This document shows positions 5,794 through 23,582 of a stretch of 49,356 nt of DNA, in pieces (position 1 is the first letter of the stretch; the number at the start of each line of letters is the position of its first letter). The DNA is taken from the NCBI GenBank assembly GCA_947487055.1, contig CANKVN010000005.1:1-49356 (forward strand). Direction: 5' to 3'. Made by a program: the position numbers and the translations under genes. This DNA comes from Flavobacteriales bacterium (GTDB lineage Bacteria > Bacteroidota > Bacteroidia > NS11-12g > UBA955). The notes below the pieces were generated by a model. That model was not told the DNA's origin and ran no database searches. It worked only from the letters and a program-made list of their open reading frames with translations.

Positions 5794-5809
5794 AGTGTAC
5801 ATTTGACAC
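5794..5809. promoter_or_regulatory. Putative NrtR-family operator 1, overlapping the susC -7 promoter element
   Basis: AGTGT-ACATTTG-ACAC; contains TACATTTG (5798-5805), a TAnnTTTG match; same motif recurs at three other promoters of the locus. Confidence 0.8.
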
Positions 5810-5828
5810 ACCGAGTTATTCTTCATTT

Positions 5829-8800
5829 ATGAAAAAACAGTTACAACTCTTGTTCATGCTGTTGGCTGCCAGCATTGCTCCTGCCGCAGCGCAAACAGTA
5901 AACCTCATCGGTAAGCTTAAATCGCAAAAAGGCGATCCCGTGGAGGCTGCAACCATTAAAGACCGAACGTCAGGCACAGCTGCCACGTCCGACAAGGATG
6001 GCAATTACAGGATTTCGCTTACCGTTGGCGCTCATGTTCTGGAAATTTCTGCCAAAAACATGCAGAACCTGGAAGAGTCCATCCAAGTGGCTGAGGGTCA
6101 AACAAGTTTGCCTGAAATAACCTTAATTCCATCAGGCTCAGACGTAGGCGAAGTGGTTATTATTGGTTATGGCACCACAACCAAGCGCGACCTTACCGGG
6201 TCAGTAACCTCTCTCAAAGGCTCAGAGGTTCAGGACATGCCGGCGCAAAGTTTCGAAGCTGCAATTCAGGGAAAGGCTCCCGGAGTTCAGATTACAACCG
6301 GCAGCGGCGTTGCGGGTTCCGGCTCTTTGGTCAGGATTCGCGGTGTTGCTTCCATATCTGCAAGCGGCGATCCGCTGTATATTGTGGATGGCATTCCTAT
6401 TTCCCAAAACTATTTTGTGAATGGCAACAACGGCGGTTTCAACAACAACCCATTAGCCACCTTAAATCCGGAGGACATAGAATCTATAGACATCCTAAAG
6501 GATGCTGCAGCCACCTCCATTTACGGTTCCAGGGGCTCTAATGGTGTTATATTGATTACCACCAAACGCGCAAAGAAGGGTGGATTAAAATTTGATTTCA
6601 CATCGCGTGTTGGCTCATCGCAGCCTACCTACCTGCCTCAGATGCTCAATGCAAGCCAATTCCTGCAAATGTATCAGGAAGCATGGGAAAACGATGGCGG
6701 AACCGGCAGAGCACCACTCCCAAACAATATTTCGTGGGAAGATGCCTTAAAAACGAATACCAACTGGGTAGACGAAACCATGGGAACAGGACTGAAGCAA
6801 ATGTATTCTTTGGGAACCACCTACCGTAAAAATAAATTTGGGGCCTACCTGGGCCTGACTTCAGACAACAATGGAAGTTTTGTAATAGGTAGCCGCTACA
6901 AGCGAAATTCTGCGCGGTTGAACCTCGATTTCGAACCCATCAAAAACCTCACTTTGACCATAAGTTCTTCATACAGCCAAGGAATAAACAACCGGGTAGA
7001 CGGAGCCTGGAGCGGTGGTTTTGGAGCGGCGATGAGCACTGCTTTGCCCATTTACCCGATCTACGACACCAGCGGTAACTTCTGGCGTCCGGGCAGTGGA
7101 GGTTTGAATCCTGTTGCTGTGAGAAAATTGAAAGACTGGAGAACCACAGAAAACAGAACCATCAACAATTTTAAAGCAACCTACAAAATATCTGACAAAT
7201 GGTCCGTATCAGCCTTTGGGGCTATCGACAACATGGATTTCTTTGAAGATATTTATGAGCCCAAAGCCCTTATCAACAGCAATCACGAAGGTATAGCCAA
7301 GCGCTCGCCCAGAAGTACATTTAACTATAACTACAACTTAGTAACGAACTACAACATCCTGAATACTGAAAAGCAATCGCTGGATGCCATGGTTGGAAGT
7401 GAGTTTCAGAAATCGGTTGTAAAATCCAGCTTCATAGAGGTGAGCGACATGAGTAATGCATTGTACAAAGGTGACCAGGGCGGAGAAAAATCAACCCGCT
7501 TTGAGCGCCAGAACGCCACTGAAGCATTCGCCTTTGCAAGTTATTTTCTTCGGATGAATTACAAATTGCAAAATAAGTACATCCTGCAGTTTACCATGCG
7601 TTCCGATGGTTCTTCCAGATTCGGACCAAACAATGCCTACGGCTTCTTCCCTGCCATTTCCGGAGCCTGGGTGCTGAGCGATGAACGTTTTATGCATCAT
7701 TTCAGCCGCAACAACTTCCTGAAAATAAAAGCAGGTTTTGGCCGCACCGGCAATACTCCAAACGAGAATTACGCCTGGCGCGGAACTTTTACCCCGCCCC
7801 AAAACTCTTTTGGATATAATGGCAATCCCAGCATATTCCCTACCCGTCTGGAAAATCCTGACCTGAAATGGGAAACTTCCGACGTATTTGACTTTACTGT
7901 TGAAGGCGGCCTGATGAAAAACCGCATCACCTGGGAGGTTTCGTACTACAACAAGAAAACCAATGGTGTAATCCTGGACCTTGCTGTTCCACGTTCACTG
8001 GGCTTTTCGTCCTATTACGATAATGTAGGCGCTGTAAGCAATACAGGCATTGAATTCTCCTTTACTTCCAGAAACATTGTGAAGAAACTGTTTAGCTGGA
8101 GCACCCAGTTCAACATTGCCCGCAACTATAACAAAATCCTAAATATTGGTGTTTACACACAGGATGCCGTTTCCGGCGGAACCAACGATACACGTGTGGT
8201 GGTTGGACAACCTATCGGAACCAATTATGTGGTTAAATTTTCCCATGTAGATCCGGCTACCGGTCGTCCGGTTTATTTGGATAAAAATGGAAATGAAACC
8301 ATGACTTGGTCGAACAATAACCGCGTGGCCGTGGGCAGTGTTTTACCCAAGGCTGTTGGGGGGTTAACCAACAATTTCACCTGGAAAAACTGGAACCTGA
8401 GCTGTCTGTTTGTTTACAAACTGGGAGGAAACATTTACAACTCCAGTGCAAAACGCCAGAATGGTGTGGTTACAGACTGGAACATGACCACCGATTATTT
8501 TGATCATTGGCGCCAGCCCGGAGATATTTCCAAATATCCAAAACTGTCTATGCAGACAGATCAGTATGGATTACCACCGGATCCTTACCAATACAACACC
8601 ACTTTATTTTTGGAAGACGGCAGCTACCTGCGCTTGCGTAATATTTCCGTGGGATACCGCATCCCTGCGAAGTGGTTTGGCAAGACAATTCAATCCAGCC
8701 GCATCACCTTCACCGGCACCAACCTGCTCACCTTCACCAAATACACTGGCGGTGACCCTGAAATTGCCCGTGATTTTGAAAACCCCGCAGACAGAAACAT

Positions 8801-8873
8801 GAGCTCAAACATTACGTATCTGACTGCACCCCAAGAGAAGTCTTACAACTTAACCCTAAACCTTACCTTCTGA
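5829..8873 (+). CDS. susC: SusC/RagA-family TonB-dependent transporter
   Basis: Signal peptide; EVVIIGYGT, DPLYIVDGIP, DIESIDILKDAAATSIYGSRGSNGVILITTK, DGSSRFG, NPDLKWET; terminal Phe. Confidence 0.97.
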   Translation: MKKQLQLLFMLLAASIAPAAAQTVNLIGKLKSQKGDPVEAATIKDRTSGTAATSDKDGNYRISLTVGAHVLEISAKNMQNLEESIQVAEGQTSLPEITLIPSGSDVGEVVIIGYGTTTKRDLTGSVTSLKGSEVQDMPAQSFEAAIQGKAPGVQITTGSGVAGSGSLVRIRGVASISASGDPLYIVDGIPISQNYFVNGNNGGFNNNPLATLNPEDIESIDILKDAAATSIYGSRGSNGVILITTKRAKKGGLKFDFTSRVGSSQPTYLPQMLNASQFLQMYQEAWENDGGTGRAPLPNNISWEDALKTNTNWVDETMGTGLKQMYSLGTTYRKNKFGAYLGLTSDNNGSFVIGSRYKRNSARLNLDFEPIKNLTLTISSSYSQGINNRVDGAWSGGFGAAMSTALPIYPIYDTSGNFWRPGSGGLNPVAVRKLKDWRTTENRTINNFKATYKISDKWSVSAFGAIDNMDFFEDIYEPKALINSNHEGIAKRSPRSTFNYNYNLVTNYNILNTEKQSLDAMVGSEFQKSVVKSSFIEVSDMSNALYKGDQGGEKSTRFERQNATEAFAFASYFLRMNYKLQNKYILQFTMRSDGSSRFGPNNAYGFFPAISGAWVLSDERFMHHFSRNNFLKIKAGFGRTGNTPNENYAWRGTFTPPQNSFGYNGNPSIFPTRLENPDLKWETSDVFDFTVEGGLMKNRITWEVSYYNKKTNGVILDLAVPRSLGFSSYYDNVGAVSNTGIEFSFTSRNIVKKLFSWSTQFNIARNYNKILNIGVYTQDAVSGGTNDTRVVVGQPIGTNYVVKFSHVDPATGRPVYLDKNGNETMTWSNNNRVAVGSVLPKAVGGLTNNFTWKNWNLSCLFVYKLGGNIYNSSAKRQNGVVTDWNMTTDYFDHWRQPGDISKYPKLSMQTDQYGLPPDPYQYNTTLFLEDGSYLRLRNISVGYRIPAKWFGKTIQSSRITFTGTNLLTFTKYTGGDPEIARDFENPADRNMSSNITYLTAPQEKSYNLTLNLTF

Positions 8874-10258
8874 TGAATACATTCTTTAAAGCCCATATCA
8901 TTGCCGCTGTTCTGCTGATTGGATCAGCAGGCGTATCCTGCAAAAAAATGTTGGATTTGAAGCCTGAAAACCTAACCCTGGCTGCAGACGCATTAAAGAC
9001 GACCGCTGATGCACAAGCATTGCTAAACTCTTGCTACGATGAGTTTGCCAACCTGATGAATGGTTCTGTTCAAAACATACATGAACTGTTGGGTGAAAAT
9101 CTGGCTCAACCTCAGAATTCAGCAGGAAGTTTGTACTACACTGTCTGGAACAGGGGTACCTTTTCATTCCGCACTGCAGACCGCGAATATCTTGATTTTT
9201 ACAATTGTATTCTGCGCATCAATACCATATTTGACCGCATAGACGAAATTGGCGATATGACGCCGGAGAACAAACAGCGCATTATGGCTGAAGGCCACTT
9301 CCTGCGTGCCTGGTGCCATTGGGAATTGGTGAAATTGTGGGCTCAACCCTATGGTTATACCGCAGATAACTCCCATCCCGGGGTGCCGATTCGCTTGAAA
9401 GCAGATAAGACAATTGAACTGCGCAGTAGTGTTGGAGCAGTTTACAACCAAATCATTGCTGACCTAGATGCAGCCATAAGCAATTTACCGGCCGACAACA
9501 ACAACTATGCAAATATTGCCGCGGGCAAAGCCCTGAAAGCCAAGGTAATGTTTACCATGAATGATTTTACCGGTGCGCAAACACTGGCCGAAGAGGTTAT
9601 CAATGGCGGCAAACAAACCGTTTCAGATACATTCTCGAGGTTTGTGAAGGGTGCACCCGAGGAGGTTATTTTCCAGCTTGTAAGTACAGGCAACAGCGAC
9701 AACCGCGGGGGCAGCTTTATCAACAATTACCGGTCAGACAACAACCCCAATCCGGCATTGAAACCTACTGCAGCATTTGCTGCTGTTGCCATGCAGGGTC
9801 ATGACCTTCGCAGCGCATTCTACGAGGTTAAAAACAAGGGCAAAGCAAATGAATTTTATATCTGTCATAAATTTGACAAAGATGTGTTCAATGTTCCGTT
9901 ACTTCACCTCACCGATATGCTGTTGTTAAGGGCTGAATGTATTACTGAAAACGGGGGCGATAAAAGCATTGCCATTGCCGATGTAGACAAAATCCGCAAA
10001 CGCGCCTATGGCGCCAATTGGACCGCCATTGACCCGGCCATTGCTACCGGCGCCCTTAAGGATTCTATTCGCCTGCAACGAAATCTGGAAATGTCTTTTG
10101 AGGGAGACTGGACCACACAATTGAGAAGGCGCGGTGCCAAAGGCGAAAATATCAAAATAAGAATCAGTGACTGGAACTGCCCCGGAATGCTGATGCAATT
10201 TCCACAAAGTGAAAATACGGCAGGCTTTATTTTTAATCCAGAAGGAGGATGCAACTAA
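8873..10258 (+). CDS. susD: SusD/RagB-family glycan-binding lipoprotein
   Basis: Lipobox GVSC; AEGHFLRAWCHWELVK.W, VYNQIIADL..A, R..EMSFEG; TGATG overlap with susC. Confidence 0.95.
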   Translation: MNTFFKAHIIAAVLLIGSAGVSCKKMLDLKPENLTLAADALKTTADAQALLNSCYDEFANLMNGSVQNIHELLGENLAQPQNSAGSLYYTVWNRGTFSFRTADREYLDFYNCILRINTIFDRIDEIGDMTPENKQRIMAEGHFLRAWCHWELVKLWAQPYGYTADNSHPGVPIRLKADKTIELRSSVGAVYNQIIADLDAAISNLPADNNNYANIAAGKALKAKVMFTMNDFTGAQTLAEEVINGGKQTVSDTFSRFVKGAPEEVIFQLVSTGNSDNRGGSFINNYRSDNNPNPALKPTAAFAAVAMQGHDLRSAFYEVKNKGKANEFYICHKFDKDVFNVPLLHLTDMLLLRAECITENGGDKSIAIADVDKIRKRAYGANWTAIDPAIATGALKDSIRLQRNLEMSFEGDWTTQLRRRGAKGENIKIRISDWNCPGMLMQFPQSENTAGFIFNPEGGCN

Positions 10259-10731
10259 TGAAAAACTTATCACGTATGGCCATGCTAGTATGCGTTTTGC
10301 TACTAACCACAACCGGCTGCAAAAAGAAAAACCGAGACCTGTACGATCCATCCAGCAAACTTGAAGGCATTCAAGCCGTATGGGTTCTGGACGAGGTAAA
10401 ACAGTTTGATCCGTCGAACAAAGACCTGGTAATTGATGTTACTGAGGCTTTCAAGGGTACAAACCCCATCGAATTGGATGTAAAATCCAATGATTTTACC
10501 TTTGCCTTCAATCAGTCCAACCCATTATTTTTGGGAAGCAGTGGAACCTGGAAATTTGATGACAATGCATTTCCAACCCAAATAGAAATGACAGGAGATG
10601 CCGGCACAAGCGTAGTGAAATTGCTGCAAACCGTGCGCACGATAGATCCTAAACTGCGCATCCAACTAACCCGCTACTGTGGCGGCGGAACCCCCAGCAC
10701 CATTTATCAATTTAGCTTTGTAAGAAAATGA
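10258..10731 (+). CDS. PUL-associated lipoprotein (DUF5004/lipocalin-like)
   Basis: Lipobox TTGC followed by KKK; GTWKFDDNAFPTQI motif; TAATG overlap with susD. Confidence 0.7.
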   Translation: MKNLSRMAMLVCVLLLTTTGCKKKNRDLYDPSSKLEGIQAVWVLDEVKQFDPSNKDLVIDVTEAFKGTNPIELDVKSNDFTFAFNQSNPLFLGSSGTWKFDDNAFPTQIEMTGDAGTSVVKLLQTVRTIDPKLRIQLTRYCGGGTPSTIYQFSFVRK

Positions 10732-11615
10732 AAAACCTACTGATTAAATACTGCACCATTGCTTTGATGCTCATTGTTTCGGGCAATGTTTACGGCCAGG
10801 CTGCTTATTTGGATAAACCCGAAGAATTTGATCCTGCAAAACCCTGTAAAATCATGGTAAACCTAAAACTTACCAAAAACGATTGGGGCATTGTGGATAT
10901 TGCAACAACCGAAGACATGTACTTGTGGATTTGGAAACCCAAAGAACATCCTGCCGGGCATCCAATGGCCAATGGTATCGGATCTGCGGCATGGAAAAGC
11001 AGTAACGATGCACTGAAGATGACCAAAGAAGCTGAAGGTATTTACAGCTATATCTTAACCCCGACCGTTTTCTTCGAAACCGATGCAGCCACTGTTTACA
11101 AAGAAGATTTTAACTTTTTGGTTAAACCCAAGGATGGAGGTGGATATGATGATCCTGACAAAAAAACAGAAGATTTATTAATTTCTGTTGATCCCCCTTC
11201 AGGCCCTGTGGTAAAAATCCAAACCATTCCGGTTGGCAAAGGATTAAAAAAGGACACCATGATTACCACAACTGCCGATGTTTTTAGCGTGATTTACAAC
11301 AACAACGCGGAAGAAAAGGTTACCATGCAGAATGCAACCATGCTGTATGTATTTGCCGTGGCTTATGACTCGGCGGGCACGGCATATAAAATTGCCACCA
11401 ATGCAAAAAAAGCCGGTGATTTCCCCCAACTGAAAATGAAAGAAACAGCGAAAGGTGTCTTTCAGTTCAGCGTTATCCCAGAAAAACTATTTACCATTCC
11501 TGCCGGAAAGAAAATTTACCGGATAGAATACCAAATAGTAAAACCCAACCTGGTGGATTCCAATGATGCCATTGATGATAAAATGATTTACCAGTTCAAC
11601 CAGGGTGGTTGCTAG
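10728..11615 (+). CDS. Secreted protein with two internally similar putative carbohydrate-binding domains
   Basis: Type I signal peptide; repeated LKM.....G.(Y/F).....P..(F/L)F motif; ATGA overlap with the previous gene. Confidence 0.7.
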   Translation: MKNLLIKYCTIALMLIVSGNVYGQAAYLDKPEEFDPAKPCKIMVNLKLTKNDWGIVDIATTEDMYLWIWKPKEHPAGHPMANGIGSAAWKSSNDALKMTKEAEGIYSYILTPTVFFETDAATVYKEDFNFLVKPKDGGGYDDPDKKTEDLLISVDPPSGPVVKIQTIPVGKGLKKDTMITTTADVFSVIYNNNAEEKVTMQNATMLYVFAVAYDSAGTAYKIATNAKKAGDFPQLKMKETAKGVFQFSVIPEKLFTIPAGKKIYRIEYQIVKPNLVDSNDAIDDKMIYQFNQGGC

Positions 11616-11633
11616 GCATTATCCTTATCAAAC

Positions 11634-11669
11634 AAAAAAAGAGGTCGGAAATTCCGACCTCTTTTTTTT
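11634..11669. terminator. Bidirectional intrinsic terminator
   Basis: A7-GAGGTCGGAA-a-TTCCGACCTC-T8 inverted repeat between convergent operons. Confidence 0.93.
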
Positions 11670-11686
11670 GTGTATTCCGGGTAGGT

Positions 11687-13063
11687 TTACTTCACCTGAA
11701 TGACCAAATAACCCCAGGAACATAGTGTATTATTCTGATAGCAGTTTGCGCCTAAAAGCACTTTGCCTTTTGGAACTTTCACCGCAGGTGCGGCCGTTTC
11801 CCCGCCCATATTCAAACAAACCCACACCTTATTCCCTTTGGATTCACGTGTAAAAATCAACTGGTCTTTGCGCTTGTGTTTGCACATCTTAATCGCATTC
11901 AAATCAGCTGATGTACCCAAAGCAGGCTGGCTGTTGCGCAAGCTACACAGCTGCTGATAAAAGCCAAAATAATCCTCATTGGTCTGCGGTTGAATGGTGT
12001 CTTTTTCAAAAAACTTCAAACGCTTTCGGTTGCCATATTCCTGACCTGTATAAAGCAACGGAATACCCGGTGCCGTAAACGTGTAGGCCGCCATCACTTT
12101 CCATGCAGGTCCCATGCGGTCAAACTCTGTACCTTTCCAGCTGTTTTCATCGTGGTTGGTGATGAAATTCATGGCATATACATTCTTTGGAAATTTCTTT
12201 TGCTTACGCATTAGCACCGTGTCAATATACCATGCGGTTTTACTTCCATGAGACACTTGATTAAGCACATGGTGCATTTCCCATCCATAATAGGCATTGA
12301 ATGCGCCCTTAAACTGGTTCATGTCATGCTCTTCTGATTCAGCCAGCATAAAAATAGGTTTCACTGTTTCTATTTCTTTTCGTGCTGCATCCCAAAAATC
12401 TGAGGGCACACTCATGGCAACATCGCAGCGAAACCCATCGATATTGCAATTTGCAACCCAAAACTTCATATCCTGAATCATGGCCTGCCGCATACCGCTG
12501 CTGCCATAGTTTAGGTCTGCCACATCGGTCCAGCCCATGCTGCTGCCATCATCGTTCAGCGGATCGGTAATATTGCCTTTTTTATCCTTTGTGAACCAAT
12601 CCGGGTGTGCAGCAATCCAGGGATGATCCCAGGCTGTGTGATTGCCTACCCAATCGAGGATAACCTTCATGCCCATACCATGACACTTTTTCACCAGCTC
12701 ATTAAATTCTTCCATGGTTCCAAATTTCGGATTCACCATGGTGTAGTTGCTGATGGAATATGGACTGCCCAGGTATTGCGCCCTCTCTTCTGGATTGGTA
12801 ATGTCTTCCACAAACAAATCCCCTTTGGCTTTGCGTTTTTTCTCACCGATAGGCTGAACCGGCATGAACCACAACACATTCACACCCAGTTGCTTTAATT
12901 TGGGCAGTTCGCGACTAAAAGCGTCAATGGTGCCTTCGGGTGTGTGGTGACGAAGGTTTACCTCATAAATGATGGGATTTTTGGGCCAGTCGGTGGGTTG
13001 TGCAACCGCTGAGTGTAACCCAAGCGCCAGCAAACCAGCCAGCAGTATGATATTCTTTTTCAT
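11687..13063 (-). CDS. GH13 alpha-amylase-family glycosidase (secreted or periplasmic)
   Basis: Signal peptide; IYEVNLR, DWVGNHT, DGFRCDVA, MLAE, TNHDE (catalytic triad intact). Confidence 0.95.
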   Translation of the reverse strand: MKKNIILLAGLLALGLHSAVAQPTDWPKNPIIYEVNLRHHTPEGTIDAFSRELPKLKQLGVNVLWFMPVQPIGEKKRKAKGDLFVEDITNPEERAQYLGSPYSISNYTMVNPKFGTMEEFNELVKKCHGMGMKVILDWVGNHTAWDHPWIAAHPDWFTKDKKGNITDPLNDDGSSMGWTDVADLNYGSSGMRQAMIQDMKFWVANCNIDGFRCDVAMSVPSDFWDAARKEIETVKPIFMLAESEEHDMNQFKGAFNAYYGWEMHHVLNQVSHGSKTAWYIDTVLMRKQKKFPKNVYAMNFITNHDENSWKGTEFDRMGPAWKVMAAYTFTAPGIPLLYTGQEYGNRKRLKFFEKDTIQPQTNEDYFGFYQQLCSLRNSQPALGTSADLNAIKMCKHKRKDQLIFTRESKGNKVWVCLNMGGETAAPAVKVPKGKVLLGANCYQNNTLCSWGYLVIQVK

Positions 13064-13064
13064 T

Positions 13065-15533
13065 TTAGTTGTACGTATAAATAAAAATTGCGGATTGATG
13101 GGGTTTAAGCATTGAACCTTTATCCACGCTCAATAAATCTGCTTTGTCCGTGTTTGACCAAATGGCTTTTTGTTTCATGCCAAAACCATTGACCATTCTG
13201 TGCAAATCCAGCAGCTCCATATTGTTTTTGCTCCTGTTAATAGCCATTACCGCCACTTCATTAAGGTAGGTGCGGCAAACCACAACCTGCGAATCGTTGC
13301 AGCTCAAAAACTTGTAATCTCCATAACAAAGCGCCATACTGCCCGTTCTTAGTTTGGCCAGATCCGTAATTTTTGTTTTAAATGCTGATTGCTGCGAGGT
13401 TAAACCTGAAAACTGCATCATGTTTCTGTTTCCGGGGTCATTTCCGCCGGTCATGCCAATTTCGTCGCCATAATACACAACAGGAATTCCCGGTGAAAAG
13501 AACAACCAGGTGTAGAAATGCAGAAATTTCTGGTATGCAGAATCTGTTTTCAAGGGCAAATCACCAAGATGTCCCATTTTTTTACCTTCGTTCCATGCTG
13601 TCTTTCCGGTAATGGTACCGTCGGCATACGACATAAAACGAGGCTTATCCTGATTTCCCGTTATGTTCCCCATTAAATGATGGTATCCATACTGCCCCAA
13701 ACTTCTCATTTGCTCGGTTTGAAGCCCTGTAAATGACCCATCCCATGCAAAGGTGCGCATCATTGCATCGTAGAGGTTAAAATCGAACTGTGCATCGAGC
13801 AATCCGTATCCCAGATAGGAGCCAATTAACTTTGTATTACCATAGGTTTCTCCAATCTGATAAATCCGCTGTTTCCGATTGGACTCAATTTCAGTGCGTA
13901 TTTTAGCCGTAAGTAAACGCGTGAAATTTTCAGGGATATGCTTGGTGGCATCGTGGCGGAAACCATCAAACTCAAATGCACGCAACCAGTACAAGGCTGA
14001 ATCTACCATATAGGAAGCCACTTCAGGCCTTCCAAGATCGAGGGTGGGCAGGAAGGTATCAAACCAGGTGGTGAGCCGTTGTTCATCCCACAGCTCCGTG
14101 TTCATGCGGCCGTTGGGCAAATACAAGGGCGTAACCCAATCAGGATGCTGCTTGTAGATAGGATGCTCCTTGTGCACATGGTGCGCCACATAATCAAGGT
14201 AAACGTTGTTGTTGCGCCGGTGCGCTTCAGTCAGCATTTCTGTCAGGGCTGTTGCATTTCCAAACCTCTCATCAATGAGCGTATTGGAAACAGGCCAGTA
14301 ACCATGATAGCCACTGAACTTGACATGCGGATCAGGAAAATCGCCCCAGGCACCTTTTGGATTTTTTGAAATGGGACTAATCCAAATGGCATTCATTCCC
14401 AGGCTGTCGAAATATCCGGTCTGAATTTTTTGCGTTATGCCCTGAATATCGCCGCCCTGAAAATTGGTTCTGTGCGTTACCAATGGATGGTCGAGCGGTT
14501 TGTCATTGGTTTTGTCGCCGTTGTTAAAGCGGTCAATAAACGCAAAATACATTACGGTTTTTTCCAGGTCTGCCCGGGAAAGCTGTTTTGGGTCTGTTAC
14601 GGGCTTTCCATATTCAAGCGGAATCAGCAGGTCGTTTCCGTGAACAAATTCTGTTGCACAAAAAACCCTGATAAAGCTTCTCTTCACAGATTTCGCCTCG
14701 TCAGGGATGAACAATTCCGGGTTATACGGCTGTATCACCCGGTCTTTATCCGCGCTTCTTGCAGTTTGATAGATAATTCGGTTATTCCAAAGTGCGATAA
14801 GATGAAACGATGCTGTACCCAGGTTTTCTGTTTGTTGGACCAAAATACCCTTATCCGAAGGAACAGCCGTGATATGCGGTGTTGCGCGGGTTTCTTTCAC
14901 CGATAAAACGGAGTTTTCACCGCCAAAACCATTGCTTCTTCTAACCGGATTTGCAACATCAAAAACCCCTTTCCCATCCACCACAAACTGATAGCCATAT
15001 TCGCCGGGATCCAGTGAAAGTGTTGCTGTATATATAGAATCTGTAACCTTCTCCAGCGGATGCGATTTAGCGTTCCATGCGTTGAAATCGCCTTTCACAA
15101 AAACCCCTTTCTCACATTTGCCGCTGTAGCGGAAGGTCACGGGAATCTGCACCGGCTTTTTCAGTATCAAATCACATCGGGTGCGGTCGGTAATATTGAG
15201 CAAAGAAAGGCCATACAAGACCCCATTCTCACCACCCTTGGGGCAGATTACCTTCAGTTCTTGCGTGCTATCGTTTGAAAAAACACTAAGCGGGAGATTG
15301 CCGGAAATTGCGGGATTTCTCCGTGGGTCCTGATCCAAAACCAAAACGCCCACTTTCTTCCCAGGGAAAATATCATTGGTGGGTATTTGCGTGGTGTCGG
15401 CCGAGAGCCATATGGGCATTACCGGAGCATAAAGCCCTGCAAAAGGTGTTATGCGGTTTTTTGTGCTAAAAACCCCACAGGCACTCAATGTGGCAGTCAG
15501 GGTGAACAGCAATATGCGCAATGGCGTTTTCAT
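13065..15533 (-). CDS. GH13 lipoprotein with CBM48-like glycogen-binding domain
   Basis: Lipobox LSAC; VFVKGDFNAW...PGEYGYQFVVDG; DRFNNGD, GGDIQGI, YHGYW, DGFRHDATKH, GETY, GNQD. Confidence 0.93.
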   Translation of the reverse strand: MKTPLRILLFTLTATLSACGVFSTKNRITPFAGLYAPVMPIWLSADTTQIPTNDIFPGKKVGVLVLDQDPRRNPAISGNLPLSVFSNDSTQELKVICPKGGENGVLYGLSLLNITDRTRCDLILKKPVQIPVTFRYSGKCEKGVFVKGDFNAWNAKSHPLEKVTDSIYTATLSLDPGEYGYQFVVDGKGVFDVANPVRRSNGFGGENSVLSVKETRATPHITAVPSDKGILVQQTENLGTASFHLIALWNNRIIYQTARSADKDRVIQPYNPELFIPDEAKSVKRSFIRVFCATEFVHGNDLLIPLEYGKPVTDPKQLSRADLEKTVMYFAFIDRFNNGDKTNDKPLDHPLVTHRTNFQGGDIQGITQKIQTGYFDSLGMNAIWISPISKNPKGAWGDFPDPHVKFSGYHGYWPVSNTLIDERFGNATALTEMLTEAHRRNNNVYLDYVAHHVHKEHPIYKQHPDWVTPLYLPNGRMNTELWDEQRLTTWFDTFLPTLDLGRPEVASYMVDSALYWLRAFEFDGFRHDATKHIPENFTRLLTAKIRTEIESNRKQRIYQIGETYGNTKLIGSYLGYGLLDAQFDFNLYDAMMRTFAWDGSFTGLQTEQMRSLGQYGYHHLMGNITGNQDKPRFMSYADGTITGKTAWNEGKKMGHLGDLPLKTDSAYQKFLHFYTWLFFSPGIPVVYYGDEIGMTGGNDPGNRNMMQFSGLTSQQSAFKTKITDLAKLRTGSMALCYGDYKFLSCNDSQVVVCRTYLNEVAVMAINRSKNNMELLDLHRMVNGFGMKQKAIWSNTDKADLLSVDKGSMLKPHQSAIFIYTYN

Positions 15534-17827
15534 CCGATTTGTATATCGCCGCCAGCGTTGATTTTATAAGGTTTTGAGTTGCAAACCAACTCGGCTTCCA
15601 ACCCTTCTATATTTTGTACCTCAACTCCTTTTTTATCGATTTTGATACCGAACAGATTTCCCCTAAAACGCAGGTTGAAACGGATGCTTTTCCATTCATT
15701 GGGCAAAGCCGGATTAATGTGGAGCTTTCCGTTGCGAATGCGAATGCCGGCAAACCCTTTGCTGATGGTCATCCAGGTTCCGGCCATACTCGTAATGTGG
15801 CATCCGTCGCAGGTGTCGTTGTTGATATCGTTCAAATCCAGTCTGGCGGTTCGCAAGTAAAATTCGTATGCTTTTTCAGGACGCCCGATTTTATTGGCCA
15901 GAATACTGTGTATGCATGGCGAGAGGGAAGACTCATGCACTGTAAACTGCTCATAAAATTCAAAATGTCTGCGGTGAGAATCCATGTCAAAATCATCCTC
16001 AAAAAAGTAGAACCCCTGCAAAACATCTGCCTGTTTGATATAACAGCTTCTCAGAATACGATCCCAGCTCCAGTGCTCCACAATGGGGCGTTGCGATGCG
16101 GGTAGTTCTGAAACGGGTATGAGTTCCTTGTCCAGAAAACCATCCTGTTGAAGGAAAACTTCCTGCTTTTCATCGAAGGGGTAATACATATTGGCCTGAA
16201 TGTTCAGCCATTTTTCAACTTCAGCGCTATCTAAACCGGTTTTAGCGGTGATTTCTGAAAGGCTTTTGGCATCAGGACCTCCCAGTTTTTCATATTGTTC
16301 AGCCGCATAGCGCATGCACCAGGCAGCCATGTAGTTGGTGTACCAGTTGTTGTTGATGTTGTTTTCAAACTCATTGGGTCCGGTAACCCCCAGCATTACG
16401 TATTGTTGCTTGTCGCTGGACCAGTTTACACGCTGGGCCCAGAAACGGGCTATGCCTATGAGTACTTCCAGGCCATTTGTAGCCATGTAATCCTCATCGC
16501 CGGTATAGTTGATGTAATCATAAATGGCATACGCAATGGCTCCGTTTCGGTGTATTTCCTCGAAGGTAATTTCCCATTCGTTGTGGCACTCCTCGCCGTT
16601 CATGGTCACCATAGGATACAAAGCAGCGCCACCGATAAACCCTAATTTTTGGGCGTTTTCTATGGCCTTGGGCAATTGCTGATAGCGGTAAAGCAACAAA
16701 TTCCTGGAAATCTCAGGTGATGCAGTTCCCAAGTAAAAAGGAATACAATATGCTTCGGTGTCCCAGTAGGTACTTCCACCATATTTTTCTCCGGTAAATC
16801 CTTTTGGACCTATGTTAAGCCGGGCATCATCACCGGTATAGGTTTGAAATAGCTGAAAAATATTGAACCTGATGCCTTGTTGTGCCGATTCATCGCCCTC
16901 AATTTCAATATCGCAGTTTTTCCAAATCTCATTCCAGGCTTCGGACTGCTCTGTCTTTAAGGCATCGAACCCGGTGCGGTATGCTTCTTCAATTTCTTGA
17001 AGTCCCTGCGTTTCAAATTCACTGCGTTTTACATACAAATCGCTCTGGATGATGCTGTATTTTTCAAACGAGAGGGTTTCACCCGCCTTGAGTTCAAATA
17101 CATACTCCATGCCAGCATATAAATCATTTTTCGGATAGGCCGTTTTAATGGGCGAATGTCCCTGATTCCACTTGTGCTGGCAAAGGGCATAGGCTCCAAA
17201 TCCTGTTTTACGGGTTTCCTGCGAGAGCCAGGCAATGGGTAAATCGAAGTACCCGGTTTGGGTATTTTCCCAAAAAAACTCATCGTAATTGGCATCCTGA
17301 TTGCGCACATCGCCATTCAGTCCGCTGCATATTTTTACGGTGCAATCCTTTGCTGCTGTTATGCTGTATCGAAGGGCACCAAGGTTTTTTCGGCGCATGC
17401 TGCAGAAGCGCTCGGTTTCGGCATGAATGGTATTTTCATCAGAAACCGCTACCGAAAACCGCCTTCTCAACAGCCCATTCTTCATATCCAGTTCGCGGGT
17501 GAATTCGGAAGCCGGCAATTTGGCCAGATCCAGGGTGGTGCCATCAACTTCAATGTCCACGCTATTCCAGCTGACCGAATTGAGCACTTTGGCAAAATAT
17601 TCCGGGTACCCATTTTTCCACCAGCCAACCCTTGTTTTATCGGGATAATAAACCCCTGCCAGATAAGAACCCCTGAGGGTTGAACCGGAATACTGCTCTT
17701 CAAAATTGGCACGTTGCCCCATGCGGCCATTGCCTATGCTAAACAGGCTCTCCGACACTTTATGCAATGCGGGATCAAAGCCTTCTTCAATAAGTTTCCA
17801 CGGATCTATTTTTATGTAATCCTTCAT
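15530..17827 (-). CDS. GH65 maltose phosphorylase
   Basis: ESLFSIGNG, KGFTGEKYGGSTYWDTE, WEITFEEIHRNG, KQADV, HESSLS; adjacent to beta-PGM. Confidence 0.95.
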   Translation of the reverse strand: MKDYIKIDPWKLIEEGFDPALHKVSESLFSIGNGRMGQRANFEEQYSGSTLRGSYLAGVYYPDKTRVGWWKNGYPEYFAKVLNSVSWNSVDIEVDGTTLDLAKLPASEFTRELDMKNGLLRRRFSVAVSDENTIHAETERFCSMRRKNLGALRYSITAAKDCTVKICSGLNGDVRNQDANYDEFFWENTQTGYFDLPIAWLSQETRKTGFGAYALCQHKWNQGHSPIKTAYPKNDLYAGMEYVFELKAGETLSFEKYSIIQSDLYVKRSEFETQGLQEIEEAYRTGFDALKTEQSEAWNEIWKNCDIEIEGDESAQQGIRFNIFQLFQTYTGDDARLNIGPKGFTGEKYGGSTYWDTEAYCIPFYLGTASPEISRNLLLYRYQQLPKAIENAQKLGFIGGAALYPMVTMNGEECHNEWEITFEEIHRNGAIAYAIYDYINYTGDEDYMATNGLEVLIGIARFWAQRVNWSSDKQQYVMLGVTGPNEFENNINNNWYTNYMAAWCMRYAAEQYEKLGGPDAKSLSEITAKTGLDSAEVEKWLNIQANMYYPFDEKQEVFLQQDGFLDKELIPVSELPASQRPIVEHWSWDRILRSCYIKQADVLQGFYFFEDDFDMDSHRRHFEFYEQFTVHESSLSPCIHSILANKIGRPEKAYEFYLRTARLDLNDINNDTCDGCHITSMAGTWMTISKGFAGIRIRNGKLHINPALPNEWKSIRFNLRFRGNLFGIKIDKKGVEVQNIEGLEAELVCNSKPYKINAGGDIQIG

Positions 17828-17837: not shown

Positions 17838-18488
17838 TCAATTTAAGTGTGATAAGAGGTATTTGGTATCCACCCCTATCAAATTCTGAACTTCATGGTC
17901 TGCACCAATTAAATTTCCATGCGCACTAATCCCCAGCACCTTCATTCCGGCTGATTTGGCGGCCTCTACCCCGGCTTCTGCATCTTCCACCACCAAACAG
18001 GATTCAGGATTTAAGCCCAGCGAGGCTGCCGCCAGCAGAAATACCTCCGGATCCGGCTTGGTCTGTTTCACCATTGTTCCATCCACGACAACATCAAAAA
18101 AAGGCATCAACCCTATTTTCGAGAGGATGAAATTGGCATTTTTAGAACTGCTTCCCACAGCGGTTTTCACCCCTTGACCAATCAGGTGATGCAGAAAATC
18201 AGTGACTCCCGGAAGTATATCCCTGCTGCTTAATGACTGTATCAAATCCAGATACAACCCATTCTTTTCAACTAGCAACCGGTTTTTCATTTCAGGGTCC
18301 AGTGCTATCCCTGCCCATGATAAAATATGGTCTAAACTTTCTGAACGGCTAACCCCTTTAAGTTGTTCGTTGTGTTTTTCGGTTAGCTCAAAGTTGAATG
18401 AGGATGCTATTTGCTTCCAGGATTGATAATGGTACACTGCCGTATCTGTCAGCACACCATCGAGGTCGAATATTACCCCTTGAATCAT
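17838..18488 (-). CDS. pgmB: Beta-phosphoglucomutase
   Basis: HAD motifs FDLDGVLTDTA..H, LKGVSR..SL, SSKNA, KPDPEVF, EDAEAG. Confidence 0.95.
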   Translation of the reverse strand: MIQGVIFDLDGVLTDTAVYHYQSWKQIASSFNFELTEKHNEQLKGVSRSESLDHILSWAGIALDPEMKNRLLVEKNGLYLDLIQSLSSRDILPGVTDFLHHLIGQGVKTAVGSSSKNANFILSKIGLMPFFDVVVDGTMVKQTKPDPEVFLLAAASLGLNPESCLVVEDAEAGVEAAKSAGMKVLGISAHGNLIGADHEVQNLIGVDTKYLLSHLN

Positions 18489-18493: not shown

Positions 18494-19357
18494 TTAAGAA
18501 TTGGTGGGCACAGATTCCTGGGCCAAATGGTATTTCAATAAAGACATCCCTGGATTTTTATCAATTACACCCAGTTGAAAGCCTTTTTCCGAAGCAACTT
18601 TCTGCAAAATCCCGGTAAAGTAAAAAGCCACCGAACCCACAAAATGAACAGGCACTTCATGGTAATTGGGATAGCATTTAATGTGTATTTCAGCAAAATG
18701 AGACAGCCCTTTGTATACCATTTCTTTTATGTAAGCGTGGTCTTTGTGAGGAACAATAAACCGCACGAAGGAGGCCAGATAAACATTGGCTTTATTGGTG
18801 TTATACACCTGGTGAAAAATTTCCTCTTTTTGCGGATGATATTGAGCAACAAATGCCTCATTTAGTTCTGCAGGCAATCTTTTGTATAAATAATCGGCCA
18901 GCAATTGCTTGCCAAAGTAGGAACCGCTGCCTTCATCGCCCAGGATATAACCCAGTGCCGGCACCACTTCCGAAACGGTTTCTCCGTCATAATAGCAGCT
19001 GTTGCTACCGGTACCGATTATGCAGGTGATTGCACTGCGGCCATCGTAAGTGGCAAACGCTGCAGCGTTCAAATCATGGTTTACATGGCACCTTGCCGTT
19101 GTAAAAAACTGTTGCAGTGCTGTTAGCACAACTGAATTCCTTTCTTCACTGGAACAACCAGCACCGTAGAAAAAAACCGCATCTAACTGACCGGCAATGC
19201 TGCTTAATGTTTCATTCGCCCTGAGGTTAGACAGAATTTCATCCGGCTGGTGAAAAAAAGGATTGAAACCCATGGTATGGGTCTCCTGGGTTTGACCGCT
19301 GTTGTTGCTAATAAGCCAATCACATTTGGTAGAGCCACTTTCCGCTACAATAATCAT
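18494..19357 (-). CDS. BadF/BadG/BcrA/BcrD-type ASKHA sugar kinase (GlcNAc-kinase-like, probable glucokinase here)
   Basis: AESGSTKCDW, GFNP, FYGAGCS, GTGSNSC, LGYILGDEGSG, FVGSVA; ATG at 19357. Confidence 0.88.
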   Translation of the reverse strand: MIIVAESGSTKCDWLISNNSGQTQETHTMGFNPFFHQPDEILSNLRANETLSSIAGQLDAVFFYGAGCSSEERNSVVLTALQQFFTTARCHVNHDLNAAAFATYDGRSAITCIIGTGSNSCYYDGETVSEVVPALGYILGDEGSGSYFGKQLLADYLYKRLPAELNEAFVAQYHPQKEEIFHQVYNTNKANVYLASFVRFIVPHKDHAYIKEMVYKGLSHFAEIHIKCYPNYHEVPVHFVGSVAFYFTGILQKVASEKGFQLGVIDKNPGMSLLKYHLAQESVPTNS

Positions 19358-19372
19358 AATACGCCTTTTCTG

Positions 19373-19395
19373 CAAACTTAGTGTAATTATTACAC
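19373..19395. promoter_or_regulatory. Putative NrtR-family operator 2, abutting the kinase-operon promoter
   Basis: Perfect palindrome GTGTAAT-T-ATTACAC (19381-19395); minus-strand TAAGTTTG at 19373-19380; lies between the divergent kinase operon and the regulator gene. Confidence 0.85.
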
Positions 19396-20186: not shown

Positions 20187-20197
20187 CCGATTTTAAA

Positions 20198-20214
20198 AGT
20201 GTTGATTTGACACT
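20198..20214. promoter_or_regulatory. Putative NrtR-family operator 3, upstream of the MFS transporter
   Basis: AGTGT-TGATTTG-ACACT in the 65-bp gap between the regulator and the transporter. Confidence 0.8.
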
Positions 20215-20251
20215 ATGAAAGCTAATCCTTAGATTGCGCTTCAATTTGGTT

Positions 20252-21607
20252 ATGGAGAAAAAACCCAAACTTACGGCCTTACAAATCATCTGGATGAGCT
20301 TTGGATTTATGGGAATCCAATGTGGATTTGGGCTTCAAAATGGCAATGCCAGCCGCATATTGGAAGATTTTGGTGCCAAAGTGCATCAGCTAAGCTGGTT
20401 CTGGCTGGTAGCTCCGCTTACCGGTATGCTCGTGCAGCCTTTGATTGGTTATTTCAGCGATAAAACATGGACCCGGATGGGCAGGCGTAAACCCTATTTC
20501 CTGGCAGGAACATTGTTTTGCTGCATAGCCATCGTTGCCCTGCCTAACAGCGCGGCCTGGTTTGCCGGAAAATCAGCGTTGCTGTTTGGAGCCACCTTTC
20601 TGGCCCTCATGGATGCCAGTATCAATGTTGCCATGGAACCGTTCCGTGCGCTGGTTGCCGACAACCTGAACGATGAACAACGCACCCTTGGCTTCAGTAT
20701 TCAAACATTCCTGATTGGCATAGGCGCTGTGCTCGGGAGTTGGCTGCCATGGCTGCTAACCAATGTAGGCGGAATAAGCAACCAGGCGCCGCATGGTCAG
20801 GTTGCAGACAATGTGGTATATTCTTTCTATTTGGGGGCAGTTTTTTTCCTCGGAACCATTCTGGTAACCGTGCTTTTCGCCAAAGAATATGACCCCGAAA
20901 CATATGCCAAATACCACGGCAATAACACAAACAATGAGGAGAAAGCCGGCCTCATGGAAATATTCCGTGATTTTGGCAGAATGCCCAAAGCAATGCTGCG
21001 CCTGGGACTGGTTCAGTTTTTCAGTTGGTTTGGTCTGTTTTGTATGTGGGTTTACACCACCAAAGGCATCGCCCAAAACACGTATGGATTGCCCGCCATC
21101 AACGGCCAATATACCGGCTCCGCCAAACACATCTTTGACACCGCCGGCGACTGGGTGGGCATTCTATTTGGAATATACAACGGTGTTAGTGCCATATACG
21201 CCTTGATTCTACCCAGCATAGTGCGCCGTATTGGCCGCAAACAAACCCATGCTTTTTCATTGATTTGCGGTGGTATAGGATTGATTTCCATGTTCTTTAT
21301 TCAAACCCCTGGCGTCCTCATCTACAGCATGATTGGTATCGGCATGGCCTGGGCCAGCATACTTGCAATGCCTTATGCCATACTGGCAGGAAGCATTCCT
21401 TCCGGCAAAATGGGCATTTACATGGGTATTTTCAACTTCTTCATCACCATCCCCCAAATTGTGAGCGCCTTGCTTGCAGGCCCAATGGTCACTTATTTAT
21501 TCGACAATCATGCCATCTATGCTTTGGTTACCGGTGGTTTTATGATGTTGCTGGCGGCCGTTTCCATGATTTATGTAAATGATGGAAAGCTGATTAAGGT
21601 GAAGTAA
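20252..21607 (+). CDS. MFS maltose/maltooligosaccharide transporter (SLC45/GPH-like)
   Basis: QI.WMSFGFMGIQ.GFGLQ, VQPLIGYFSD, GRRKPY, NVAMEPFRALVAD, YMGIFNFFI.IPQI; about 12 hydrophobic segments. Confidence 0.93.
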   Translation: MEKKPKLTALQIIWMSFGFMGIQCGFGLQNGNASRILEDFGAKVHQLSWFWLVAPLTGMLVQPLIGYFSDKTWTRMGRRKPYFLAGTLFCCIAIVALPNSAAWFAGKSALLFGATFLALMDASINVAMEPFRALVADNLNDEQRTLGFSIQTFLIGIGAVLGSWLPWLLTNVGGISNQAPHGQVADNVVYSFYLGAVFFLGTILVTVLFAKEYDPETYAKYHGNNTNNEEKAGLMEIFRDFGRMPKAMLRLGLVQFFSWFGLFCMWVYTTKGIAQNTYGLPAINGQYTGSAKHIFDTAGDWVGILFGIYNGVSAIYALILPSIVRRIGRKQTHAFSLICGGIGLISMFFIQTPGVLIYSMIGIGMAWASILAMPYAILAGSIPSGKMGIYMGIFNFFITIPQIVSALLAGPMVTYLFDNHAIYALVTGGFMMLLAAVSMIYVNDGKLIKVK

Positions 21608-21672: not shown

Positions 21673-23517
21673 TTAAGGCTTGCGGGGAAAATGAATTATG
21701 GTGGTGCTCATGGGAGAAATACCGCTGGTATAAAAACCGGTTGTATTTGCCGTTAAATTATTGCTCCCTTTTGCCCAGTCCGCTCTTATATCGCTATACC
21801 GCGATGCAATAATGGCTTTTGGTGTGCTGGATTGATTAACAAACACACCAATAACATCCTCCTCCCCTTCCAGAAAAAATGCATACACCCCGTCCTCCGG
21901 GATATATTGGGTGCGTTTTCCTACCGTAAACAAAGACGCATATTGCTGCCTGATTTGGGCTAACCGCCTGATATAATCGCACATTTCCTGTTGCTCAGCC
22001 GTACGACCATCGGGGCTAAAGCCATTTTTTTCGTCGTCCGGCCATCCGCCCGGAAAATCCCGGCGTATGGCACCATGCGCACCCGTATCTTTCATGAGAA
22101 TTTCAGTGCCATAAAAAACACAGGGAATACCCCTACCCATGTACATCAGGCTAAGCGCCATTTTTGTTTTGGAAATATCCTGACCAAACACCGCATGCAT
22201 GCGGTTCAGATCGTGATTGTCCGCAAACGTTACCAGCATTCGCGGATTGCGGTAAACCAGATCGGAGGCAAACAAATAATACAACCTGCTCAAACCGGTA
22301 TTCCAGCCGAATGGCTCGTTGAGCGCTTGATGCAATCCGAAACAGAATTGAAAATCAGTGACCGCATGCGGCAATCCGGCGATCGATTTCGATTTCGGTT
22401 GAAAAACCGAAGGGGCAAAATAGGCCTGTGCAGCCAAGGTATGTTCCCATGTTTCTCCAAAAATAAACAAATGGGGAAATGCCCTTTTAATTTCAATATT
22501 GAGACGCTTTAAAAACCCGGGTTGCGAATATGGATAGGTATCTACCCGCAATGCAGATGCTTGTGTAACAGCAATCCACCAAAGGGAATTTTGTATCAGG
22601 TATCGCTGAACATGAACATTATCCTGGTTTACGTCAGGCATGTGTTTATCAAACCAGCCATGCAACATGGTGGATTTCTCGGACGCAGCGGCATAAGGAT
22701 CACTTAAACTGGAAACACGATAATTTGTACGAAAAAATGTATCCCTAAAATGAAACCAGTCTTTGGCAATAAGCTGTTTAAACAATGCATGCTCATTACC
22801 CACGTGGTTGTATACCACATCCAAAACAAACTTAATCCCTTTTGACCTGCATTTGTTTGCCAGATCAATATATTCTTCCATGCTTCCGTAGCGTGGATCA
22901 ACACGGTAATGGTCTGTGCAGGCATAACCATGATAGCTCTGTGAAGGTTGATTATTCTCCAGCACAGGGGTCATCCACAGGGCGTTAAAACCCATATCTG
23001 TTATATAATCGAGCCTTTGCTGAATACCGGCCAAATCGCCCCCATGCCTGCCGTGTAAATCATTTCTGTTTGCCTTTTCGAGCATGGTTTTTACATCGTC
23101 ATTCCCTGGATTTGCATTGGCAAACCTGTCCGGCATCAACAAATACATCCTGTCCGAAGCTGCTATAGCGGCAGATGACCGGGGCTTTTCCCTCATGCTG
23201 AATAAATAACGGCTAACCTGTTGATTGACATTGCAATTAATGCTGAAATCTCCCTGTTTCCTTGAATTGATTTTTACATATATCAAGCGGTATCCTTTGC
23301 CGATGCCGGCAACGCTTTTGAGGATTTTTGGCCCACCTTTTACCTGAATTTCTGCCTTGTCTATTCCATCTCCATAAAGCAAAAGCTGCAGGGTATCGCA
23401 ACCCATTTCCTTGAACCAGTAGGGAGGATCACACCGCTGAATTGATTGGGCCTGCAGACCCAATGAAAATAAGAAAAAGAGGGCGTAAAACAGCCGTTGG
23501 GAAAATTTAAAAACCAT
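21673..23517 (-). CDS. GH13 cyclomaltodextrinase/neopullulanase (SusA-like)
   Basis: Signal peptide; RCDPPYW..M...LQLLLYG N-domain, YLLMPDRFAN, RHGGDL, YHGYA, LRVDTY, GETW, DNHD; start uncertain (23517-23544). Confidence 0.92.
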   Translation of the reverse strand: MVFKFSQRLFYALFFLFSLGLQAQSIQRCDPPYWFKEMGCDTLQLLLYGDGIDKAEIQVKGGPKILKSVAGIGKGYRLIYVKINSRKQGDFSINCNVNQQVSRYLFSMREKPRSSAAIAASDRMYLLMPDRFANANPGNDDVKTMLEKANRNDLHGRHGGDLAGIQQRLDYITDMGFNALWMTPVLENNQPSQSYHGYACTDHYRVDPRYGSMEEYIDLANKCRSKGIKFVLDVVYNHVGNEHALFKQLIAKDWFHFRDTFFRTNYRVSSLSDPYAAASEKSTMLHGWFDKHMPDVNQDNVHVQRYLIQNSLWWIAVTQASALRVDTYPYSQPGFLKRLNIEIKRAFPHLFIFGETWEHTLAAQAYFAPSVFQPKSKSIAGLPHAVTDFQFCFGLHQALNEPFGWNTGLSRLYYLFASDLVYRNPRMLVTFADNHDLNRMHAVFGQDISKTKMALSLMYMGRGIPCVFYGTEILMKDTGAHGAIRRDFPGGWPDDEKNGFSPDGRTAEQQEMCDYIRRLAQIRQQYASLFTVGKRTQYIPEDGVYAFFLEGEEDVIGVFVNQSSTPKAIIASRYSDIRADWAKGSNNLTANTTGFYTSGISPMSTTIIHFPRKP

Positions 23518-23564
23518 CACTTTTGGGTAAATTTCTTTCAACAAAGAAAAAATATTTTTTTGAA

Positions 23565-23582
23565 AGTGTCTGAATTACACTT
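23565..23582. promoter_or_regulatory. Putative NrtR-family operator 4, in a divergent promoter region
   Basis: AAGTGT-CTGAATT-ACACTT; TAGTTTTG -7 element at 23592-23599 on the plus strand. Confidence 0.82.

Follow-up and report, generated by a model that had tools for sequence, protein, structure and literature searches.

A starch and maltose locus with four gapped palindromes

The window described here is a 49,356-nucleotide stretch of contig CANKVN010000005.1 from a Flavobacteriales bacterium (assembly GCA_947487055.1). It carries an 18-kb starch/maltose locus, in which an adjacent susC/susD pair, four glycoside hydrolase (GH) family 13 genes and one GH65 gene form a polysaccharide utilization locus (PUL; Table 1). 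A gene for a Nudix-like protein with a winged helix (19476-20186) lies in the same locus, and one gapped palindrome recurs between its genes. We propose, with a probability of about 0.8, that the product of this gene is a repressor responsive to a sugar, from the branch of the NrtR family that includes Bacteroides AraR and XylR, and that it acts through the palindromes of the locus.

A pattern search of the window places AGTGT-N7-ACAC at 5794, 19380, 20198 and 23565 (sites 1 to 4), with all four sites intergenic. These positions and sequences are identical to those of the first-pass annotation of this DNA, which had claimed a single gapped palindrome at four intergenic promoter regions. Shuffled sequence is expected to give 0.27 matches, against six observed, and six or more were reached in 0 of 100 shuffles; four sites give six matches because two of them are full palindromes, readable on both strands. 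The shorter GTGT-N7-ACAC is found at 13 places in the 2,336,107-bp assembly (132 contigs), four of which are within the 18-kb locus. The consensus, TAAGTGT-N7-ACACTTA, is a 21-bp palindrome with a GT-N7-AC core, the form described for NrtR-family operators (PMC2330246; here and below, cited papers are used for those portions of their text that were available to us). A reading of the palindromes as hairpins or terminators was rejected, as a stem of 4 bp around a 7-nt loop would be too weak and every site is 5ʹ of genes.

Could the palindromes be chance occurrences or non-regulatory repeats? A similarly scoring site inside a gene on another contig of this genome (C24:358) is consistent with such an explanation, but the count seen here was never reached by shuffling, the four sites are intergenic, and their positions are conserved across genera. 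The conservation data already contradict this explanation, which we regard as extremely improbable.

Sites 1, 2 and 4 contain, or lie no more than 11 bp from, a TAnnTTTG promoter element in the right orientation, bearing out the earlier claim that three sites overlap such an element or are within about 12 bp of it. In site 1, where AGTGT-N7-ACAC begins 35 bp upstream of the susC ATG, the -7-like element TACATTTG (5798-5805, + strand) is inside the palindrome. Site 2 borders on TAAGTTTG (19373-19380, - strand), a -7-like element belonging to the kinase operon, and TAGTTTTG (23592-23599, + strand) is 11 bp downstream of site 4. Site 3 has only a near match, TTGATTTG, and no full TAnnTTTG. These distances bear on the sign of regulation. 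The same protein, bound to the same operators, might be an activator or a dual regulator, and the centre of site 2 is indeed at an activator-like distance, about 70 bp 5ʹ of the regulator's predicted start. However, at three of the four sites the palindrome overlaps or borders -7/-33 elements, the median distance from site to kinase start is 11 bp among the best 80 of 589 relatives (see below), and the characterised family members NrtR and BtAraR are ligand-released repressors (PMC2330246, PMC4666351). Hence, we consider activation or dual regulation improbable.

The regulator and the conservation of its proposed operator

The 236-residue regulator matches NrtR_WHD (PF21906; 3.2e-26, all 61 profile positions) and AraR_C (PF19368; 1.6e-13). 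Its N-terminal Nudix-fold domain matches NUDIX (PF00293; E 7.7e-7), and in the model this domain matches its Nudix counterparts in BtAraR and SoNrtR. The nearest solved protein is BtAraR (5BS6; E 5.9e-43), with SoNrtR next (1.5e-16). An AlphaFold model (pLDDT 82.3, pTM 0.78) superimposes on BtAraR with a TM score of 0.74-0.81 (36-37% identity) and on SoNrtR with 0.69 (27-28% identity). From R62, the Nudix box reads RVLTELTGL, as compared to RVLAELTGL in BtAraR. Relative to the Nudix signature GX5EX7REUXEEXGU (PMC4666351), two of the three catalytic Glu residues are replaced; the regulator thus has the impaired signature of the NrtR family, and R62, L64, L67, T68 and G69 do not vary among 14 orthologs. 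Homologs carry the database names “8-oxo-dGTP diphosphatase”, “NUDIX hydrolase” and “ADP-ribose pyrophosphatase”.

The putative ligand pocket combines conserved and altered features. R31, R86 and H147 align with Arg34, Arg86 and His131 of BtAraR, which hydrogen-bond L-arabinose (PMC4666351). In the hydrophobic part of the pocket, Phe36, Gly48 and Phe49 of BtAraR correspond to Ala, Asn and Leu. A 15-residue insertion follows R86 (residues 87-101, with a modelled helix at 90-99); it is found in 14/14 aligned orthologs, and is absent from BtAraR and from a paralog in the same genome. The AraR-like contact residues and the linkage to sugar catabolism would, on sequence grounds, place the protein in the sugar-responsive branch of the NrtR family. 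Alpha-glucan neighbours at the loci of the 15-locus and 80-locus sets described below, together with the modest identity to BtAraR and the insertion that AraR lacks, set it apart from the AraR and XylR orthologous groups.

Might the protein instead be a canonical NrtR, with ADP-ribose or NAD as its signal, so that glucan catabolism would be coupled to NAD status? The fold and the Arg/His ligand residues are common to SoNrtR (PMC4666351), as this would require. The score against the NCBIfam NrtR equivalog (NF050029) is nonetheless 122.7 bits, under the 400-bit cut-off for the canonical NAD-regulon protein, and BtAraR is by far the closer relative. The locus has no NAD genes, and every context examined has glucoside catabolism genes as neighbours. 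An ADP-ribose or NAD sensor is therefore very unlikely.

The palindrome is conserved along with the regulator gene. A first set comprised 41 relatives, the own genome included, 29 of which have a regulator match at E <= 1e-20. In this set, tAGTGT-N7-ACACTa is beside the regulator gene in all 22 ortholog loci (46-100% identity, own locus included), and eight weaker, paralog-type loci are without it. At 15 wider loci, from two families of the order, a site lies between the regulator and a beta-phosphoglucomutase (bPGM)-GH65 operon (kinase in 14/15, bPGM in 15/15, and GH65 in 13/15, two being cut by contig ends), with extra sites 5ʹ of susC homologs and between the divergent GH13 and T9SS genes (T9SS, type IX secretion system). 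Every ortholog locus of these two sets has a site at the position of operator 2. Operator 1 is kept in 5/5 same-genus genomes, one with a core mismatch. Operator 3 is kept in nine same-genus loci and is absent in other genera, where the regulator-MFS spacing is ~35-45 bp (MFS, major facilitator superfamily). Operator 4 is conserved in loci L036, L041 and L048-L050.

A scan of species genomes gave 589 relatives, of which the best 80 (51-89% identity) were used. All 80 are contigs of uncultured metagenome-assembled genomes, labelled Flavobacteriales, Crocinitomicaceae, Cryomorphaceae, Bacteroidia and so on. GTGT-N7-ACAC is found within 400 bp upstream of the regulator in 73/80, in 68 of the 71 loci with at least 400 bp of upstream DNA, and in 56/56 loci with a divergent kinase gene. 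The density of sites is 74 in 29.9 kb of upstream windows, as against 25 in 823.6 kb elsewhere. Loci of the Crocinitomicaceae type read regulator <site> kinase-GH13-MFS-bPGM-GH65, and GH65 is absent at E <= 1e-30 in 10/10 relatives without the regulator. The earlier check on whether genomes with the ortholog also have the motif is thus answered by the 22 close loci and by 68 of 71 wider ones. An ortholog-level match (E <= 1e-65) occurs in 100/191 genomes of the order (14/28 genera), and in 8/400 other genomes of an even phylum sample.

It is possible in principle that another factor binds the palindromes and that the Nudix-like gene is merely a neighbour. The genome does encode a second NrtR-like protein (contig C21:7531-8262, - strand; locus L004), 44% identical to the regulator and lacking the insertion, and two sites on contig C14 are unlinked to both regulator genes. 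Against this, the site tracks the insertion-bearing ortholog across families and, in one clade, across classes: among 119 partly overlapping regulator loci, a GTGT-type site is present in 101/109 with the insertion and in 0/10 without it, and three of those ten have TTGT-N7-ACAA instead. An unrelated global regulator, or the paralog itself, is thus very unlikely to be the binding factor. The C21 paralog is the first gene of an operon that also encodes a GH2-like protein and three family-less proteins. Its annotated start lies within reach of a palindrome, ATTGT-N7-ACAAT, that overlaps it, and the TTGT type recurs in the paralog loci L032, L033 and L035.

The clade that crosses classes is associated with GH94. 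The order site-regulator-MFS-GH94-GH9 is found in 5/5 genomes of this group, four of which are from another class. All five regulators have the same 15-residue insertion, and four of the five operators are of the same type (for example TTAGTGTATATTTAACACTTA); that of L157 is degenerate (...ACAA, 14.0 bits). The pocket motif is TLTGNH in this group, versus LPG[ND]L in the GH65-linked group. In a phylogenetic tree, the GH94 clade has a support of 100/100, the backbone would fit either a sister position to the GH65-linked group or a place within it, and the insertion-less paralogs fall on one side of a branch in 52% of bootstraps. Three genomes of one family have the order regulator <site> ... 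kinase-bPGM. One of the three, locus L150, reads regulator <site> pfkA-gap-kinase-bPGM-GH65 and has a second site 5ʹ of a GH13/susC/susD unit. In L150, pfkA and gap (7454-9439, - strand) lead the operator-linked kinase-bPGM-GH65 operon, and a gene for a T9SS-sorted CotH-domain protein comes after the regulator gene (10335-12569, + strand).

Together, cross-genome conservation, family membership and the published family palindrome support a link between the regulator, the operator and alpha-glucan/maltose genes, in line with the earlier reading of an NrtR-type regulator tied to starch and maltose genes. Several observations weigh against our interpretation. The window contains 39 copies of TAnnTTTG where 45.9 are expected; as the element is not enriched, what counts is only where it lies and how it is oriented, and each single promoter call is weak. 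Site 2 is ~50 bp 5ʹ of the regulator's own -7-like element; hence, autoregulation through this site is doubtful in this genome. Three of the 71 loci with sufficient upstream DNA (L093, L100 and L124) lack a site and also lack maltose genes in the vicinity. The locus sets partly overlap (for example, L016 is L059) and the genomes are mutually related, which makes the counts look more independent than they are. The matrix used below was trained on exact GTGT-N7-ACAC matches, so that its core columns are fixed, and one of its strong matches, C24:358-378 (L005; 19.9 bits), is inside the 3ʹ end of a gene for an Fe-S subunit (CxxCxxC). The Arg/Arg/His triad is largely kept in the ADP-ribose-binding SoNrtR too (PMC4666351), and is therefore no proof of a sugar ligand. 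Lastly, DNA binding by the regulator, its dimerisation, the sign of regulation and the effector are points that we infer.

Genes and sites of the proposed regulon

The coordinates of the four operators and of the genes in the locus are listed in Table 1.

Table 1. Operators and genes of the starch/maltose locus (positions in the window).
Feature	Position	Strand	Details
Operator 1 AAAGTGTACATTTGACACACC	5792..5812	strandless	18.1 bits matrix score; 17 bp 5ʹ of susC ATG
SusC-like TonB-dependent transporter	5829..8873	+	Pfam Plug, TonB_dep_Rec_b-barrel, CarboxypepD_reg
SusD-like glycan-binding lipoprotein	8873..10258	+	Pfam SusD-like_3, SusD_RagB
160-aa protein, no significant Pfam match	10249..10731	+	possibly SusE-like by position; position conserved in relatives
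DUF4961 protein, SusE/F-like surface protein by position	10728..11615	+	Pfam
GH13 alpha-amylase family enzyme	11687..13063	-	Pfam; last gene of minus-strand operon
GH13 enzyme with CBM48/AMPK1_CBM module	13065..15533	-	Pfam
GH65 maltose phosphorylase	15530..17827	-	nearest solved protein L. brevis maltose phosphorylase 1H54, E 1.1e-218
Beta-phosphoglucomutase	17838..18488	-	TIGR01990, 229 bits vs cut-off 189.4
Sugar kinase, Bacteroidota GlcNAc/MurNAc-kinase family	18494..19357	-	1ZXO 4e-58, 8OQK 2.5e-56; first gene of operon
Operator 2 TTAGTGTAATTATTACACAAA	19378..19398	strandless	24.5 bits; divergent kinase/regulator region
NrtR/AraR-like regulator, 236 aa	19476..20186	+	NrtR_WHD, AraR_C, NUDIX
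Operator 3 AAAGTGTTGATTTGACACTAT	20196..20216	strandless	22.0 bits; between regulator and MFS gene
MFS sugar transporter (GPH/sucrose-symporter-like)	20234..21607	+	profile matches; presumed maltose/maltodextrin importer
GH13 cyclomaltodextrinase/neopullulanase-like	21673..23544	-	Alpha-amylase, Cyc-maltodext_N, Cyc-maltodext_C
Operator 4 AAAGTGTCTGAATTACACTTA	23563..23583	strandless	23.3 bits; divergent GH13/T9SS region
T9SS-sorted protein	23626..24930	+	choice-of-anchor X domain; weak pullulanase X25-like stretch
Secreted (T9SS) GH13 enzyme with CBM48 and DUF4961 domain	24931..27771	+	Pfam

Two transcription units stand out. The plus-strand unit runs susC, susD, the 160-aa protein and the DUF4961 protein; the minus-strand operon, in order of transcription, runs kinase, bPGM, GH65, GH13-CBM48 and GH13. 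The GH65 enzyme matches kojibiose phosphorylase (E 9.8e-121) more weakly than it does 1H54. The kinase, for which we prefer the ATG at 19357 to the TTG at 19375, matches no Pfam family, even with the threshold relaxed to E <= 1, and is related to the solved Bacteroidota N-acetylglucosamine (GlcNAc) and N-acetylmuramic acid (MurNAc) kinases 1ZXO, 8OQK and 8OW9. Its location near the maltose phosphorylase gene suggests a glucokinase offshoot of that family. A Pfam scan covering each open reading frame (ORF) of 90 aa or more from 5.8 to 27.8 kb found no second DNA-binding protein, in agreement with the claim that the Nudix-like gene is the only regulator in the locus, and no SusR- or LacI-like gene. 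Four riverine RNA libraries include contigs that are 95-100% similar to parts of the genes for the kinase, the regulator, the MFS transporter and the T9SS protein, and three contigs begin at 23624-23629. As assembled contigs, they say nothing about level, strand or true ends; DNA carry-over is possible, and no meaning attaches to stretches that the contigs leave uncovered.

How far does the regulon extend in this genome? A matrix built from 64 distinct sites gave seven matches of at least 18.1 bits in the whole genome, the next being 14.7. They are the four window sites, C14:7720 (26.9 bits), C14:4151 (18.9 bits) and C24:358. The first-pass annotation had suggested a scan of this kind, with a matrix from its four sites; those four sites stand, whereas an extent of four does not, as there are two more conserved sites on C14. 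Each C14 site is intergenic and upstream of a gene for a PATR-repeat/T9SS protein (C14:765-4103 and 4287-7696 of the own genome, G000, - strand; L003), and the sites are kept in 7/7 same-genus genomes with those genes, among 11 searched. Pfam at E <= 1 and a protein atlas give no function for the two proteins beyond “hypothetical T9SS cargo”. The second gene is split in G000 (overlapping ORFs of 776 and 371 aa) and is one frame of ~1140 aa in relatives; a frameshift or an assembly error may account for this. No NAD-metabolism gene is beside any of the six intergenic sites.

Two further candidates were not accepted as members. C24:358, being inside a coding region, is probably a chance match; by its Cys motifs, the gene is succinate dehydrogenase/fumarate reductase-like. 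In one relative (L169; G032:C1:878771), a perfect AGTGTATTTTTGACACT palindrome is ~170 bp 5ʹ of pckA, for phosphoenolpyruvate carboxykinase, but none of the four other genomes compared showed the exact pattern upstream of pckA, and we treat this site as a lead only.

Elsewhere in the window, a 426-aa ORF (41638-42918, + strand) of this environmental Bacteroidota genome matches Thiol_cytolysin (Pfam E 1e-27) and is cholesterol-dependent-cytolysin-like, and an ORF of more than 1,800 aa (43739-49354, - strand) runs past the window end.

Proposed mechanism, effector and relation to known systems

We propose that the free regulator dimer would bind the 21-bp palindrome TAAGTGT-N7-ACACTTA. By analogy to BtAraR and from the symmetry of the operator, we expect a homodimer whose DNA binding is relieved by ligand. 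The palindromes would be on or beside the -7/-33 elements of the susCD unit, the kinase-bPGM-GH65-GH13-GH13 operon, the MFS gene and the divergent GH13 and T9SS-GH13 units, with two more before the secreted PATR-repeat proteins on C14. The apo-repressor dimer would occlude these elements and block transcription. Breakdown of alpha-glucan would deliver a cytoplasmic sugar to the catalytically dead Nudix-like pocket: either maltose, entering by the MFS transporter, or D-glucose freed by the GH65 phosphorylase. With sugar bound, the winged helices would rotate out of register, as they do with ligand in BtAraR (PMC4666351), and the repressor would leave the DNA and derepress the locus.

Which sugar is the effector? 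Maltose phosphorylase and cellobiose-type phosphorylases both release D-glucose, and glucose is therefore a serious candidate beside maltose. D-glucose is as good a candidate because the GH94/GH9 clade shares the operator and the insertion, and because one lineage has pfkA-gap. D-glucose is our tentative first choice and maltose or a maltodextrin a plausible second; a glucose phosphate is unlikely, and any other ligand, ADP-ribose included, more unlikely still. A more general and rather doubtful extension is that the insertion-bearing clade as a whole senses D-glucose (or a glucose phosphate) and not maltose, with one operator, tAGTGT-N7-ACACTa, and one ligand. Such sensors might control whichever route of glucoside phosphorolysis each lineage has: possibly GH65/bPGM/alpha-glucan PULs in the present lineage, cellobiose operons with GH94/GH9 in another class, and the glycolysis genes pfkA-gap in a third family. 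If this were so, Bacteroidota without a phosphotransferase system would have a dedicated cytoplasmic glucose-responsive repressor derived from a dead Nudix enzyme.

What is the significance of the repressor proposed here? Regulation of PULs outside gut Bacteroides is largely unknown, and the locus offers a concrete candidate pair of regulator and operator for starch and maltose. The 21-bp motif could be used to predict alpha-glucan regulons in metagenomes, and the regulator reading would correct the names “8-oxo-dGTP diphosphatase” and “NUDIX hydrolase” given to homologs. The GH94 clade represents a natural experiment on the evolution of ligand specificity in a dead Nudix pocket.

Starch PULs are usually associated with SusR or with regulators of the LacI type, and the latter control many alpha-glucan PULs of flavobacteria. 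Like SusR, they do the same job, control of a starch locus by its substrate, with proteins unrelated to the one described here. SusR itself is a periplasm-sensing membrane activator (PMC3878776). Canonical NrtR of Shewanella and Synechocystis (3GZ5/3GZ6) shares the fold, the 21-bp GT-N7-AC operator and ligand-relieved repression, and differs in its NAD-metabolism regulon and its ADP-ribose ligand; the window regulator is 27-28% identical to it and under the equivalog cut-off.

The best match in both sequence and structure is BtAraR (BT0354; PDB 5BS6/5DD4/5DDG/5DEQ), the L-arabinose-responsive repressor of Bacteroides thetaiotaomicron, with the same Nudix-like sensor and NrtR-type winged helix (PMC4666351). 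The two have in common the RVLxELTGL box, the Arg/Arg/His residues, and operators at the promoters of catabolic genes and SusC/SusD loci. In contrast, the regulon here comprises GH65, bPGM, GH13 and MFS genes in place of ara genes, the operators are single rather than tandem, the protein has the 15-residue insertion and the substitutions Phe36>Ala, Gly48>Asn and Phe49>Leu, and the host belongs to a Bacteroidota lineage that is environmental and uncultured.

XylR (BT0791) and those NrtR groups of Bacteroidetes that are linked to pentoses share family and phylum with the window regulator, and likewise have a regulator gene beside its predicted target sugar genes and GT-N7-AC palindromes (PMC3878776; PMC2330246). 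Their regulons concern xylose, arabinose and the pentose phosphate pathway, and in the available portions of these papers none is tied to maltose, starch or cellobiose. An NrtR-family regulator with such a tie was likewise absent from the full-text literature covered, including the portions available of PMC4666351, PMC3878776, PMC2330246 and PMC7641319; RegPrecise and paper supplements are outside this scope. Consistent with the earlier statement that the regulator was not known to be described, the searches returned only AraR, XylR and NrtR papers or unrelated co-mentions. The sugar branches of the NrtR family described so far are for arabinose, xylose and pentoses (PMC4666351, PMC3878776, PMC2330246). 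Judged from its sequence and gene context, the window regulator most likely represents a new function in a known family, extending the sugar-sensing branch of NrtR regulators beyond pentoses to sugars based on glucose.

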